Assembly: GCA_010093605.1 (NCBI GenBank)
Contig: MU004189.1
Coordinates: forward strand, 1,247,834-1,311,833
Direction of reading: 5' to 3'
Origin: Lophium mytilinum
Taxonomy: Eukaryota
Length of the DNA: 64,000 nucleotides
The notes under the pieces are model-generated. The model had not been told where the DNA came from. It was given only the letters and a program-made list of their open reading frames with translations, and ran no database searches. The first letter of the stretch is position 1. Every line of letters begins with the position of its first letter. A program made the translations under genes and the position numbers. Shown in pieces: positions 3,145 to 10,116 of the stretch.

Positions 3145-4408
3145 AGATGTGTGGAGGCAGTGCTATAGAGCAGCAATTATGTGTTTATTCTGCCTTTGCA
3201 AAGAATCTCGAGAGGCTTGATCAAGCGCTGAAGACTTGATTGAACCCGCGAACGGCTGAGAAATTAACGTTAGGGGTATTTTCAGAAACAATATGTCCTC
3301 ACCCACGAGTAACCCTCGCGACAGGTGGGGTGTTCCTCACGTGCCGCTCACGCGCCCGCGTTCTCGCTGGACTATATAACGCTACAGCACCCCCACAGCG
3401 AGGCCTGTTCGGGCAAGTCTTGGCAGCGTGCAAAAAGTGTGGAAGGCAGAGAAGTTGCGTCCAAAATTGCCATCACGTGCCATCGCGATTTGGCTGAATC
3501 TTGACGCCCCCTAGACCTTCGCCCGAGTATAAATACCTCCCCTGATATTACTGCTCCTGCTTCTAGCTAGCAAGAGGAGGGCTGTGGTTGAGGGGTTTGG
3601 ACTTCTCAAGTGAAGCATAGGTGTGCTGGGTGTTCAAAATCTGAATACTATGAGCACATGGTGTGTAGCAAGCAGGCGGAAAGGGGGATTTGTGGGAAAA
3701 GGCCCAGTCTCGAAGACCATGGGTGCAAAACTGGGAGTTGCGAGACTCCATGGTGTGGAAATAACGGAATGGTACCAGTGGGTGATGGGGAGGTGGGGAG
3801 GTGGTAGGATTGGTGATGGTGGTTGGTGTCGTGTTTGGATGGTGCTGGAGATCATGATTGGAGGGAGGGGAGGAATACATCGTTTATGTACGACGATGGG
3901 AAACGGGTATAGGGGAGATGGTGGTCTTCATCAGCGTCTAGTAAGTCCAGCACACCCATATATTCGTGCGCTAGTGTCCGTTTGATGTCCACGCAACCTC
4001 CGATCGCTCCACTGGAGACTCCTTGAGCCAGGTTCGCACCCAGACAAATTCTAACGACACCATTGTAATCCGCGCTGTCGAATTTGCACTCCCGCCTACA
4101 CAACGCCTCCCATGGCAACATCCCATCATAGGTTTTGAAAGCCCGAGCACACCATCACTGCACCATGGGACGCTTTGGAGGAACTGATTTAATCCTCAGA
4201 CCAAACCGACCGTCCACCCATCGAGCCATCTGATGGCATGATTTGCACCCACAACTACCCGCCCTCCATACTAGGATCTGGTCGTCATTTTCGAACCACC
4301 AACAAACACTCTTCGTCGACCCATGAAAAGAAATGGAAGTCCTGGGGAGAGGTGCATTTATAGGGGAAAGAGAAAAGGAAAACCGATGAGTCAGCAGGTC
4401 GTGACCAG

Positions 4409-5461
4409 TCACGGGCTACTCACGTTGACCGCGCGGGAGAGAATGAGTAGCGACGTGACCAGCACAGCGACCCAAACCGTACGCTGGACGAGAGCGGTAC
4501 CCAAGGTCGCGCTAAAAGGGTCACAATCTTGCTCTTGCTTAGCCTTTTCAATCGATGTTGGTGGATTACGTTGGCTAGGTGCAGATGGATCGCGCCCTTG
4601 GCGACGGTCGTTATCCAGATCAACCTAGTCTATTTAGCCTCTTGTACAGCTTTTGTCAAGGAGTGCTGAGTTACTAGATGGCTGGCACATGCGTCACCCT
4701 GCTGCCACGCCGAGCCGAAACATCCGTACTCATATCGATAGATGCAAGTGTATATGTTGTAGCCACTACTACTGCTGTATGTATCTATGCGCTTTTGTGG
4801 AAGGGGCCTGCCGTCAGGCCCGACCATGACTATTTCTTTCTCGGGGGGTCTTAGGGGAAGGCCTCTTGACTGAAATCGAATTTAGTGCCATCACAGATAT
4901 AGCGTGATTGCGGAAGAAATTACCAGGCATTTCATACATGCATCACCATTCCGCCACACCCAACCGGAGCAGTAGTATTCGGACCAGTAAATGCACTGGT
5001 ATTTGTTGTAACCACTGCCACTGTCGTACCCGGACATCTCTCTAGCGTCGTGAGGGGCGACCGTCTACCTGAATTCGAAATTAGTAGCCTCACGGATATA
5101 GTATGATTGTAAATGAAGTTACAATGCATCTTGCACATATATCATCCCTCCGCCGTACCATGTTGGTGCAGTCGGATTCTAGCCGGTTTATGCAATGGTA
5201 TGAGTTGTAGCCACGGGTGACAGGATTGTTTGGATGGGGCCTGCCATCAGGTCCGACCATCTCTTTCTCGATGACCGTCTCTCTCGGGGGGTTTGAGCGA
5301 TGACCGATTGCCTGGGTTCCAAGTTAGTAGCCTCACAGATACAGTCTGAATGATGAGAGAGTTACCTGGCAGTATGCACATGCATCGCCATTCCGCCATA
5401 CGAAATTTGGACATTGGTAGTCGCATCGGTAGGTGCAAGCATATTTGTCGTAGCCACTCAT
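4409..5461 (-). CDS. Uncharacterised protein(s) with four tandem C-x7-C-x10-C-x2-C/H (putative Zn-binding) modules; one fused ORF or two adjacent ORFs depending on splice acceptor
   Basis: ATG 5461. Exons 5461-5366, 5311-5123, 5068 (or 5064)-4924, 4869-4675, 4624-4409. Phase-0 GTAA(C/T)T...YAG introns of 54, 54, 54 and 50 nt. Modules CTYRCDYQCPNFVWRNGDACAYC, CINRLESDCTNMVRRRDDICARC, CIYWSEYYCSGWVWRNGDACMKC, CIYRYEYGCFGSAWQQGDACASH. Last exon is uncertain. Confidence 0.75.
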
Positions 5462-5609
5462 TTTGGTAGAGATTGAAAGTAAATTTACCTGAGATATTGT
5501 GGCCTTAGTTTAGCTGCCTAGTGTTTCGACAGACGGGGCATAGAAATGTCGATGATATCAGCCGATGGATGATGGAGAGGAGGTTCGGAAAGTTGGGAGG
5601 AGATGATAG

Positions 5610-5623
5610 CGGTCACGTGACCG
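5610..5623. promoter_or_regulatory. 14-bp perfect palindrome CGGTCACGTGACCG (extended E-box) in the divergent promoter of the Cys-repeat gene and the ketopantoate reductase gene
   Basis: Seen directly; it lies midway in the ~290-bp gap between ATG 5461(-) and ATG 5753(+). TCACGTGA is a typical bHLH site. Confidence 0.5.
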
Positions 5624-5752
5624 TAGTCCGCCGGGCCGACTCCGATCCCCGACCCCACTCTACCTCGTCCTTCTCGAGCTAGCACAACACAACTCAATAT
5701 CAACTACGTGAGTCCTTCCATCGTCTTTCCAAGCATTATTAATACTGACAGG

Positions 5753-6907
5753 ATGACTGATAGCCAAAAGAAAAATGTACTTGTCATCGGCGGCGGAGCA
5801 GTGGGCGCAATCGCAGCACTGAATCTCGAAAAAGGAGGCCTCGCAGCTGTCACGGTCGTCCTACGCTCAAACTACGAAGTAGTGAACAAATCTGGGTATG
5901 ATATTGAGTCATGTGACCATGGAGTGCTGAAGGGATGGAAGCCCACCCATGGTATATCCATATCCTTCACGTTTCTTATAATTCAATGCTTATTTGAACC
6001 TCCACAGTCCGCCCCAACGTCCCCGACATCTCGAAGGAAAAGATAAAGCCCTACGACTACATCATCTGCACAACCAAAAATATCCCCGACATGCCTCCCT
6101 CGCTCTCCTCCCTCCTCTCGCCAGCCCTGCCTTACGAGAACACCACCACCGTCCTCGTTCTCATCCAAAATGGCCTAAACATCGAGAAGCCTCTCCAAGA
6201 CGCGTTCCCCACCACCCCCATACTCTCAGGGGTCAGCTTAATCGGCACCGCTGAGATCAAGCCCGGAAAGATTGTTCAAGACGACCACGACCGCCTCCTC
6301 ATCGGTCCGTTCCAGAACCGCTCACTAGCCTCCGTCTCGCAGATCGAGGCGAGCTTGGATTTCGTGAAGATATATAAAGCGGGCGGGAAGACGAATTGCA
6401 CCTATTCGCCGGATGTCGAGCATGACCGATGGCGGAAACTGGTGTACAACGCGTGCTTGAATCCGATCTGTGCGATTACGGGTTTGGATACGGGGAGGAT
6501 CCGATTGGCGGATGGAGGCATTGAGGGGTTGGTGAGGCCGGCCATGGAGGAAATCGTGGCTGCGGCGAAGCATAAGGGGGTGTTGTTGGCGCCAGATGTG
6601 GTGGATGTGATGATTGACATTGATCCGCTGGAGATTTATTTGAGTCCGAGTATGTTAGCTGATGTGAACAAGGTAGGTGTCAACACATTGATCTTGACTA
6701 GACATCGAAGAGCTAACTTCGTATCAGGGTAATTACATCGAGTTCGAAAATCTACTCGGCGAGCCGCTGCGTGAGGGAAAGGAGTTGGGCGTGCCGATGC
6801 CAACGCTCGAGGTGCTGTATAACATCTGCAAAACGGTACAATGGCGAACGAAGGAAGCTAGGCACTTGGTAGAGATCCCGCCGAAAAAGAGCGCGGTGAA
6901 GAGCTGA
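5753..6907 (+). CDS. Ketopantoate reductase (ApbA/PanE) family oxidoreductase
   Basis: Rossmann motif VIGGGAVG, LIQNGLNIE, RWRKLVYNACLNP, PSMLAD, IEFENLLGEP. Introns 5952-6007 and 6673-6727; probable 5'UTR intron 5708-5751. Confidence 0.9.
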
Positions 6908-8982
6908 TTGGCTTAGGATGTAGTAAGTTGGTTGAATATGAATCCTTATAATCACGATATAATTTTATCTGCAGTGACTGACAATCGGCCACCTCCCTGT
7001 GATGGCGATCGTGCTTATTATGTGTGTTTAACTACAGTCTCTTGGGACTGACACTAGGGACGAAAAGCATTGGGGCAGCTGACGCTTTTTGATAAATTCG
7101 ATCAAAGCGCGAAGCTAGAGTCCTTGAGTCTAATTCGCATCTATTTAAAAACAGCCGAAGGACTTGTGTTTGCCACAAAGGTAAACTCTGGATTATTTGC
7201 TTGTTGTGGTTTTCCTTCGTGTTAAGCCCAAGGAAAGCCTCGGATGAGTATCTAGTTTGATCATTTTGTCCCACCCGCCTCTAATCTTGGCTCACGGCCA
7301 TTCAATCTGCATCAAGCTTTGTTCAAGTATCCAGCGAACAAAGAGTTTACATTTCAAGCACTTCTATTTCCATTATGTCCCGAATTTCTACCTCTGTTTT
7401 CCATCCTTGAGAACCTCAATGCCACCCTGCTTACCGTAACTTAGCAGTATCTCGACTTTTTAGAGAACTCTCTCCCAATTGCAGACTCCTTTTGATTTCT
7501 CTTCCCCTTTTCAAGCTGCCCGAGCTCAGGCGCATCCCTCGGGCTATAGACCCAAGCTGACGCTATCAGAAACACTAATCCGGCGTACTCGACCCTCGAA
7601 TACCAGCGGTCGGCGGGTGGATCCGAATTTGGGGGATTTGGGGGCGTATCGGGCGCCGATTAGGCGGAGTACGAGGGAGACGAGGGGGAAAATTGTGAGT
7701 AGGGAGCCAGGGGTTATACATTCTGGGTTGGAGAGGTTGGCGATTTTGTTTTTGAGGGAGGGGAATTCCGCGGATCGGAATAGGATTTTTGAAAGAAACC
7801 CAGTCGCAGTATCGTAGACTGCCTACCCTAGCCGAATAGTAACATGGTTACAACATGAATAAGATCAATGAGCGCTGGCGTCTACATATGAGCCAGCTTT
7901 CGTGACTTTCCAGCTGGGGGATATTGGAAGGGGGTAGGGTGCATAGAAACCGATGAATCGCCATGCAATATCAAATTTCGGTATGAAGCTGGAGATGCTA
8001 CGTCATCCCTTCCGAGGCCTCCAGTCTTCGGGTTCTTAGCCGAGACCGCTGTGCGAAAATTTTCATGCGTCCGTCGCGGAGCTGTGGAGAGACGAACTCA
8101 CCACCATTCTCCAGCTGGACCCTGCCTGTTTGCATGGCGTCAAATCACCCTGTCTGCAGCAGGCCCAAGATCGGACTAACAGCTGGAGCCTTTGCTGGAT
8201 ATCTCCGCCCAAGGACCACGCAACGCATCGATTCATCCCATCTGCCCATCCAGCGACGCGCTCGCCGAGCAATACACCAGGTTCTCTCACCTTCAGACCT
8301 GGAACACAAGAAGCAACTTTCCGCCGCCGAAATACAAATTTCAGTCTGACATTCCGCTTCCTTTCATTCAGGCGGCGGCGCAGATATCTCCACGCCGCGT
8401 ACTAACACCAAAAGAAATAAACAAACAATAATCGCTCGAGAGGGGATTCTAAAAAGAAGGCAATACCTTGCTAAGGTGATAGCATTGCTGAATGGAAAAC
8501 AAGTAACAGTCTCCGGCAACTGACGTTTGGCTTAATTTCGGCTCCGTGAACACAGATCTTAGACTAGAGCCTATGGCCTAGAACGTGGTTGGTATTAAAC
8601 ATTGCAGATCAGCCTGTAGAGAAGTCGTCTTCTCTGATTCTACAAAGGTATAGGTGTGCATGGAGTTTAGAACCATGTCTCGTGCCTTTTTTTAGGTAGG
8701 CTGAGAGGCGAGCTTAATTAATGTCGAGCGATTATCCAGGTAAAGCCCAATAAGTATCTTACGAATGCAGTTCAACAGTCGGTGAGCTGGACGATAGTTG
8801 TTTGTGGAATTCTGCGGGCGTCTGCTAGCATGCGCAAGGCATGCGGACTTCCCGAGCTAGGCAGACTAGGCAAACTAGGCAAACAAGACTGTAGGCTTTA
8901 AAGACGTAATGGTCCCCAACATGCTCTCAATCTTGCTCTTCCTCAGTCTACTTCTAGTACACCCCTTCCTCTTTAAGAACCT

Positions 8983-10116
8983 ATGTCAGCAAACTTGACC
9001 ATGGTGTCAGACCTTCGTGAGTGGCCTGAGATACGCCAGTCACTTTATGCGACCCATCTCTGCGGCCTCGTAGCCTACTGCCAGCTCGGCATTATCACCC
9101 ACCGATTCCGCGCGAAGTGGGACGGTCAGAGCATCATCCTTCCCTTGGTCTTCGTTTTTTTTCCGCTGTTATACATTTGCCAGATCTTGGTAGCTATCCC
9201 ACTGGCTCTGCGAAATCTCCTTTGGCGACCGCGTGAGGGCCTCAAATACTATATCTGTGCAGTGCTGGGCATCTACACCGTGAGGACGAGTTTTGTTGAC
9301 GAGGACGGAATGGTAGACGACACGTCCAAAGCGAAAGGACTGGCCCTCTTGCTGGACCAGTTCACGCCCCGGGCCATACCTCTCGACCGGAAGTGGTCTG
9401 ATGGCAGGATCTTCAGTTTCATCGTCACCCTAGCTCCGCTCTATCAATGTACCTCGACGTCTCTACTCTACATCCGCCGCTGTACCATGCAGGGGGCCAA
9501 ACTACTAGATGTCGACCATCGCATCGGTTTGATGGCCATTGGCGCATCGCTCGCCTTGCTCGGCTACTATTTCTTCGAGGTGACGGGGTATGACTGGCAA
9601 GATACTCTTTGCACGCCGACAACGTCCGGAGGGATCAAACTACTGGACTATCCTCTCGGAACGCTGCACAAATTCGATCAAGGCCTAGGAGGCGATGTTT
9701 CTCTGATCGAGAGTATCGACGTCACGAACAAGCACGTCTACGACTGCGTGCTTGCTGCATGCGTCCATCTTATCCATCTCCGCTTTTCTGGCCGCTGCTT
9801 CCCGCTTTTCGAACACAGAAACTCGAACAGCCACAGCATAGCGACAGCAACAATCCTTCCCAGTGCTGTTGCCCTGGTGGCGAGCGTGCCGCTCATCGTC
9901 CGCTCGTTCTGGGCATCGCCGGCGAGGCAAGTGGTTTGGAAAGGGGATAAGCTGGTGAGATTGCTCATACTACTCGCCTTGTCATACATCGCTACAGCAA
10001 CTATCAACTCCGAAGTTAGGGAGGTGAAACAGGTGGTGGGGCAACATGTTACGACCTCGTGGAACCAGGATTGGATGTGGAAAGATCCTTGGGCGGACTT
10101 CTTGTGGCCGGTTTAA
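8983..10116 (+). CDS. Hypothetical multi-pass membrane protein (377 aa, intronless)
   Basis: Long ATG-initiated ORF with several hydrophobic segments and a Trp-rich C-terminus (WMWKDPWAD); no family recognised. Confidence 0.7.
   Translation: MSANLTMVSDLREWPEIRQSLYATHLCGLVAYCQLGIITHRFRAKWDGQSIILPLVFVFFPLLYICQILVAIPLALRNLLWRPREGLKYYICAVLGIYTVRTSFVDEDGMVDDTSKAKGLALLLDQFTPRAIPLDRKWSDGRIFSFIVTLAPLYQCTSTSLLYIRRCTMQGAKLLDVDHRIGLMAIGASLALLGYYFFEVTGYDWQDTLCTPTTSGGIKLLDYPLGTLHKFDQGLGGDVSLIESIDVTNKHVYDCVLAACVHLIHLRFSGRCFPLFEHRNSNSHSIATATILPSAVALVASVPLIVRSFWASPARQVVWKGDKLVRLLILLALSYIATATINSEVREVKQVVGQHVTTSWNQDWMWKDPWADFLWPV

Follow-up and report, generated by a model that had tools for sequence, protein, structure and literature searches.

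How a cluster of four short cysteine modules, packed into about 1.1 kb and each closed by its own intron, is read into protein is the question raised by this locus. The window, by which we mean the whole 64,000-nucleotide stretch analysed, is fungal DNA of Lophium mytilinum, and the locus lies on its minus strand, on contig C9 of a 43.4-Mb assembly (coordinates without a contig or locus label are window positions, on the minus strand unless stated). An oxoprolinase-like gene stands on one side and a divergent ketopantoate-reductase-like gene on the other; these neighbours suggest no functional link with the locus. The short divergent promoter common to the locus and the ketopantoate-reductase-like gene contains a palindrome, GGTCACGTGACC, at about 5610-5625, and a similar sequence, GGTCACATGAC, occurs near 5915. 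Elsewhere in the window, positions 8977-10116 of the plus strand hold a 379-codon intronless open frame in which no Pfam family was found at E <= 0.001.

Three-frame translation of the minus strand gives four modules of the form G-Y-x2-Y-x-C-x7-C-x10-C-x2-C/H, as a sequence-only reading of this DNA had described. Their cores, numbered 1 to 4 in the direction of reading, lie at 5455-5366, 5212-5123, 5013-4924 and 4764-4675. Across all six frames of the window the full motif is found four times, and in none of 20 shuffles; the bare cysteine spacing is found four times in the window and once in the 20 shuffles. One codon past the fourth ligand, all four modules meet a GTAA(C/T)T donor in phase 0, and the introns that follow measure 54, 54, 54 and 50 nt in locus order. 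The resemblance claimed among the three introns of equal length is real: ungapped pairwise comparisons give 40, 36 and 41 identical bases of 54, and intron 4 is a more diverged copy. Between module cores, 51-61 bases out of 90 and 12-17 residues out of 30 are identical. Modules 1 and 3 both start Met-Ser-Gly-Tyr-Asp, and the linker MVGPDGRP does recur after each of them. No stop codon or frameshift interrupts any of the four cores. Cysteine fills 15 of the 16 ligand positions; modules 1-3 are all-Cys and module 4 has His as the fourth ligand, a position held by Cys in all 198 homologue matches. Both conserved Trp residues and the conserved Asn are missing from module 2.

The RNA evidence consists of contigs of X1, the one public run found for this stretch, whose label as RNA is a guess. 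The run skips canonical GT-AG introns in the neighbouring gene and has zero cover in the intergenic bin 5679-5819, and therefore behaves as RNA. Its contigs contain the joints 5366/5311, 5123/5068, 4924/4869 and 4675/4624, exactly the predicted bases being skipped; all four introns are thus spliced in X1 at the junctions that the sequence-only reading had named, and the locus is expressed.

The same junctions do not produce the single four-module gene that had been proposed. Junction 5123/5068 leads into eight codons and then an in-frame TAG (5044-5042), nine codons past the junction, which the earlier reading missed, together with a fifth, 420-nt intron from 5488. Two two-module ORFs are found instead. 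ORF-A carries modules 1 and 2 in 103 amino acids and is identical, letter for letter, to P0006, the public gene model KAF2495464.1 (hypothetical protein, Lophium mytilinum). ORF-B, whose ATG lies 4 nt past the ORF-A stop, comprises 174 amino acids with modules 3 and 4 and a hydrophobic tail. A protein search over 84-2000 residues returned, among 1078 candidates, only P0006 and P0007, the public model of a two-module paralogue described below, with ORF-B absent, and no 174-aa two-module protein is present among the 95 family representatives described below. ORF-B therefore seems to be unannotated in that collection, so the description of the gene as hidden holds for ORF-B and fails for ORF-A.

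A single protein could still be made if intron 2 ended 4 nt later, at the alternative in-frame AG at 5065; use of that acceptor, giving a 58-nt intron, would fuse the ORFs into a 278-aa four-module frame with no internal stop. The AG is present, the frame is open, and contigs drop rare variants. However, X1 has the 54-nt skip, with no 58-nt skip listed among its contig joints, both branches of the transcript rejoin at 5068, and the public model stops past module 2. We regard one four-module protein as very unlikely, and the fused form as a minor isoform at most. A-to-I recoding or read-through of the ORF-A stop was also considered as a route to fusion and rejected; translation would continue in a frame other than that of module 3.

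The exon-intron structure can be followed in the direction of reading. A 5' leader exon (5489-5552), common to both isoforms described below, has an adapter loose end at 5552, where contig cover ends, and a contig joint given as 5065/5486. It contains a 7-codon uORF (5518-5541), again in both isoforms, that starts at the first ATG (transcript position 12) in a weak context, with T at -3. The start codon and module 1, which is N-terminal and near the family consensus, form exon 1 of ORF-A (5366-5461). Intron 1 (5312-5365; 54 nt, phase 0) precedes exon 2 (5123-5311), with the MVGPDGRP linker, an in-frame ATG at 5260 and module 2. Intron 2 (5069-5122; 54 nt, phase 0) is followed by the last eight codons of ORF-A and its TAG (5042-5068), a segment that serves as 5' UTR in the skip isoform. 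ORF-B exon 1 (4924-5037) has its own ATG and an N-terminal module 3, and after intron 3 (4870-4923; 54 nt, phase 0) the second exon (4675-4869) repeats the pattern of linker, in-frame ATG, here at 4827, and module 4. Intron 4 (4625-4674; 50 nt, phase 0) leads to the last exon (4409-4624), 71 codons and TGA. Its tail is hydrophobic, as had been suggested (19-residue hydropathy window 1.96), and the stretch at about 4477-4421 is a possible C-terminal membrane anchor. The covered region 3957-4408, downstream of ORF-B, is taken as 3' UTR from X1 contig cover. A contig of low depth (5.9) spans 3429-4200 and has a plus-strand GT..AG joint at 3940/4200; it is possibly an antisense or convergent RNA under the 3' UTR.

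The fifth GT-AG joint in X1 removes 420 nt (5069-5488, CAG|GTAAAT ... CAG), from a donor at 5488 in the leader to the acceptor of intron 2 at 5069. This alternative intron cuts out all of ORF-A except its last eight codons. The donor lies 27 nt upstream of the module-1 ATG, and between the two there is no AG. Two paths result. When the 5488 donor is not used and introns 1 and 2 are removed (path A), ORF-A is the first long frame; when 5488-5069 is spliced (path B), ORF-A is gone and ORF-B becomes the first long frame. In path A the main ATG is at transcript position 92 and in path B at 96; in either case it is the first after the uORF. Just upstream of the donor, positions 5489-5520 resemble the end of a relic intron (branch-like CTAAAC/CTAAG, then CAG). 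The 5488 donor may be an AG|GT boundary re-used from an earlier duplication.

Seven bases at the 420-nt joint fit either side, an ambiguity of the kind that template switching, or a genomic deletion carried by part of the culture, might leave. The joint runs, however, from a good donor to an acceptor that is proven and has a branch motif; only molecules retaining intron 2 contain the repeat, and no such contig is listed. Nor is the region specially folded (RNA fold z = 0.50). Either origin for the joint is highly improbable. Rfam gave one match, far under its gathering score (E 0.88).

Whether both paths start from the same leader was addressed by contig-overlap arithmetic, in which the observed bin depth was compared with that expected from four contig layouts. 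A single leader contig (5486-5552) with two branches rejoining at 5068 gives a bin depth of 1468.2, exactly as observed, against 1052.6, 1256.7 and 1271.9 for the other three layouts. As only the shared-leader layout reproduces the observed depth, the same leader is touched by both paths. As far as 5515 the contig of path A coincides with that of the leader, and some A molecules therefore carry the 5488 donor unused. The leader, skip and downstream contigs have depths of 983, 969 and 983, values that can neither rank the parts of the gene nor give an isoform ratio; with both paths near 1000, neither is a trace product.

Those near-equal depths, which are not what a sum of isoforms would give, are a weak hint of a different arrangement, in which ORF-A is a gene nested in the first intron of gene B, with mostly its own starts, an early poly(A) site, or both. 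The choice between products would then be made by transcription start or end, and there would still be two proteins. Such nesting is the leading alternative, though less likely than not, given the A molecules that reach 5515 with the donor unused and the lack of any of seven poly(A)-like hexamers between 5068 and 4637, loose as fungal signals are.

Path A might also be bicistronic, with ribosomes reinitiating at ORF-B and the B-only mRNA tuning the ratio of the two products. The stop-to-start gap of only 4 nt would favour this. Reinitiation past a 103-codon ORF is usually poor, however, contigs across two ORFs do not amount to one transcript, and ORF-B is already explained by the skip isoform. 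Bicistronic RNAs have been reported in a filamentous ascomycete, according to the accessible part of one source (10.1101/2021.11.08.467853). We think reinitiation an improbable addition here, compatible though it is with the reading that follows.

The best explanation, to which we give a probability of about 0.72, is that the locus holds two tandem paralogous genes that share a promoter and a 5' leader, each with one predicted two-module protein as its product. Its transcriptional basis, seen in the contigs of one run, is a pair of spliced paths that part at 5488, at the end of the leader, and come together again at 5068. We propose that a single-module gene was duplicated together with its intron, that the module pair was then duplicated again with its start codon, and that the first pair was closed by a stop codon. 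A leader donor with no acceptor before the first ATG would then have allowed the second pair to be translated from the same promoter, and use of the single donor at 5488 would act as a switch between the two predicted proteins. In this way splicing would give the duplicated unit its own N-terminal copy of the module without a second promoter. The arrangement may have survived because the family module is normally N-terminal and the splice supplies an N-terminal copy.

A broader version of the switch can be drawn from the same sequence. The 5488 donor might be left unused or joined to any of the acceptors at 5312, 5069 or 4870, which would make the locus a miniature variable-exon cassette; in each case the first ATG past the uORF keeps the frame of the module that follows. 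Any of the four diverged fingers could then be made N-terminal, in two soluble proteins and two with the hydrophobic tail. Of the four options, X1 contains the unspliced and 5069 forms only, and, since a single duplicated linker supplies two of the three in-frame ATGs, these are not independent coincidences. The cassette is an unlikely extension of the two-gene arrangement.

The sequence-only reading had also called the modules an uncharacterised C4 domain, and this proved correct; many homologues have identical spacing. At E <= 0.001, a profile built from six modules, the four here and two of a paralogue elsewhere in the genome, found 95 representatives, of which 88 have the strict motif; the other seven are five unrelated-looking repeats and two proteins with shifted spacing. 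A deeper profile returned 176 proteins, 120 of them listed. Genera with named members include Tuber, Dactylellina, Candelaria, Aulographum, Botrytis, Sclerotinia, Fusarium, Hypoxylon and others, which by class placement we take to span the filamentous ascomycetes. Examples such as FFUJ_08452, FVEG_11420, BCIN_13g02820 and SS1G_09574 are annotated as 'hypothetical' or 'uncharacterized', and the returned records hold no functional name except an automatic RanBP2-type label on P0007 (UniRef). Pfam scans gave no family for the five locus exons, one sub-threshold zf-CCHC match for P0006 (E 0.28), and, for 27 family members, eight families each matched by one of the 27 (E 0.012-0.19). Atlas matches are to unnamed ascomycete clusters at 0.75-0.88 and are leads only; a short-protein homologue search with A3 gave 11 candidates, none scored. 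No paper was found in open-access text under family gene ids or short motifs, though supplements may mention the ids. The family is conserved across filamentous ascomycetes, has no Pfam entry and carries no functional name in the returned records.

The typical member has a single N-terminal module followed by a beta segment, and the locus does not match this layout, with two modules per ORF and no beta segment. Among 207 proteins, 199 have one strict module, one has two (P0006) and seven have none. Many homologues have a conserved three-stranded segment after the module, which is missing in both ORFs here. Kept at the locus are the cysteine spacing, the Gly-Tyr before Cys1, the Val-Trp core, the A/S-x-G-R past Cys4 and the N-terminal Met-Ser-Gly start. 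We conclude that the locus is a variant architecture within the family. The three metagenome loci examined are all single-module, so no second organism with the two-ORF layout was found among them. The hydrophobic tail is likewise particular to ORF-B: none of 111 homologues has a hydropathy window of at least 1.6, and no second copy of the tail exon was found in the genome. ORF-B may be tail-anchored in a membrane and ORF-A soluble.

The intron position can be traced beyond the locus. A GT donor stands at the conserved place in three of three metagenome loci, two of them near-identical. In 231 predicted homologues the donor place is occupied by Val in 58, as if those models ran into the donor, and the post-intron x-x-G continuation is seen in 168; among 169 homologue models with that continuation, 165 have their first Cys no further in than residue 21. 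A phase-0 intron placed one codon after Cys4 is, from these comparisons, ancestral to the family. In one single-module homologue (L018, 2444-2501), donor-like GTAAGC and GTAACT lie upstream of the ATG with no acceptor between, and a related locus (L019) keeps only the first of the two. These sites could represent an ancestral skip option, or chance.

Two further family loci occur in the Lophium genome, both on contig C6. The first (L002 minus 1624-1090, about 424 kb) has two modules, with a phase-0 donor at both, the second being GC, and corresponds to public model P0007. That model splices earlier and loses Cys3 and Cys4; it is probably a mis-annotation. This paralogue may be alternatively spliced too, and its second module has an in-frame ATG of its own. 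Just downstream, at L002 760-975, is a degenerate tandem repeat of about 55 nt (GCCGCC...CCACCCGCTGG). The other locus (L009, minus strand from 1572; about 1472.5 kb on C6) is a single module with an expanded C-x10-C-x19-C-x2-C spacing; it reads GT at the conserved position and has a short tail with S-x-G-R.

Against a scoring profile made from 232 non-self homologue rows (145 unique), module 3 scores 51.4 bits, the best in the locus, module 1 45.9, module 2 39.8 and module 4 35.8, the N-terminal modules 1 and 3 thus outscoring the internal modules 2 and 4. The internal module of the C6 paralogue has the highest score of all six, 56.4 bits, and decay of internal copies is therefore no general rule, although this module does have an ATG of its own. 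Medians for the family module are 8 aromatic residues in 30 and a net charge of +3, against a net charge of -1 to +1 in the four copies here. Having lost the basic charge of the family, these copies have probably lost its original specificity.

The purifying selection suggested earlier is borne out at the ligands, where 21 of 24 pairwise comparisons among the four modules are identical against 65 of 156 at other positions. For module 2 it is unclear: pairs that include this module have dN/dS of 0.61-1.2, and about 1.1-1.2 against modules 1 and 3, whereas pairs among modules 1, 3 and 4 have 0.29-0.53 (about 21 synonymous sites in each comparison). With its missing Trp and Asn residues, its dN/dS near 1, the His for Cys in module 4 and a tail that has no homologue, the locus could be a decaying duplication in which only some modules work, the ORF-B tail came about by accident and the skip is noise that does no harm. 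Yet all cores are open, with no stop or frameshift, despite intron divergence of 0.35-0.59 changes per site; the pairs without module 2 stay in the lower dN/dS range, and 15 of the 16 ligands are still Cys. Decay of the locus as a whole seems unlikely to us.

The history of one module to two to four that had been proposed is upheld in part. Modules were duplicated with their introns, and the repeated linker and twin starts support two steps. The introns and the tree give this order no backing, however: introns 1 and 3 are the least alike pair among the three 54-mers, and a tree of the four units has none of its five inner branches starred, the duplication order not being recovered.

An AlphaFold model of ORF-A, from an alignment of 54 sequences, reaches pLDDT 89-97 for residues 1-40; this part contains two short strands, and its helices span 12-15 and 29-34. 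C28-x2-C31 is placed at helix 29-34 with pLDDT above 90. Module 2 is modelled at pLDDT near 54, with little alignment support. A Fusarium member gives the same pattern together with a separate three-stranded segment. Sequence searches of the PDB returned no match, fold searches of the PDB and a viral library gave nothing at E <= 0.001, and the ORF-A model had no hit at Z >= 2; the best hit of the Fusarium model (Z 2.8) is on the beta segment only. Fold searches are weak for a domain of about 35 residues, and blank results do not show a new fold.

Each module quite probably binds one zinc ion through its four Cys positions, and the finger most likely serves as an N-terminal binding module. The models suggest a compact, treble-clef-like finger, its last Cys pair opening a helix. 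Because the module carries no secretion signal and its surface is rich in aromatic residues, it most likely binds a macromolecule inside the cell. A protein is a tentative first choice of partner and a nucleic acid a close second; plain metal buffering is an unlikely role.

The label on P0007 invites comparison with RanBP2-type zinc fingers, which follow the pattern W-x-C-x(2,4)-C-x3-N-x6-C-x2-C. The module resembles them in its four Cys, the 10 residues between Cys2 and Cys3 and the terminal C-x2-C. It differs in having seven residues between Cys1 and Cys2, no Trp two residues before Cys1, no Asn at the diagnostic place, and helices in the model. RanBP2-type identity was rejected: none of 238 motif-bearing proteins has the pattern (Asn 0, Trp 0), and Pfam scans gave no zf-RanBP match.

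Treble-clef fingers, among them GATA, LIM, HIT and the halves of ZZ/PHD, place two ligands at the start of a C-terminal helix, and in both the ORF-A and the Fusarium models the last Cys pair stands at such a start. The accessible text on GATA-like fingers describes a knuckle, a hairpin and a helix (PMC7614390). Unlike a treble clef, the module has its first two Cys seven apart with a short helix and no C-x2-C knuckle, and its models gave no significant structural match, in searches that are weak at about 35 residues.

If the two-gene reading is right, about 1 kb of sequence shows a way for a tandem duplicate to gain expression straight away, no additional promoter being required: a donor lying upstream is joined to an acceptor that was already there, which turns the older copy into an intron. 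Annotation pipelines keep one such ORF and drop the other, so more fungal pairs of this kind may be hidden. The locus looks lineage-specific and hence of limited reach; the finger of the family is small, confidently modelled by prediction and easy to test.

Polycistronic read-through transcripts are known in fungi (PMC4503453; 10.1101/2021.11.08.467853), and the accessible parts of these reports likewise describe two non-overlapping same-strand ORFs that can share one RNA, the genes also being transcribed independently. Here, unlike in those RNAs, it is a splice from the upstream leader that gives access to the downstream ORF, and a separate promoter would not be needed. We found no fungal case of a two-gene shared-leader layout in the open-access literature, and the accessible text of a review of hidden features of fungal genomes (PMC11413187) contains no such layout.

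The closest parallel lies in flies. The accessible text on Drosophila sesB/Ant2 describes tandem duplicates expressed from one promoter through alternative splicing (PMC7504413), and a second source, seen likewise in its accessible part, counts 130 fly genes sharing a promoter and 5' exons (PMC4528330). Like sesB/Ant2, the present locus has a common 5' noncoding exon, as seen in one run, and non-overlapping paralogous coding regions chosen by alternative splicing. Unlike sesB/Ant2, it is fungal and occupies about 1.1 kb in all; its upstream gene has no acceptor before its ATG and is expressed when the donor is not used; and that gene shares its last acceptor and exon with the 5' UTR belonging to the downstream gene. 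The arrangement of genes is a variation on one already known in flies, built here from an unnamed and widespread domain.
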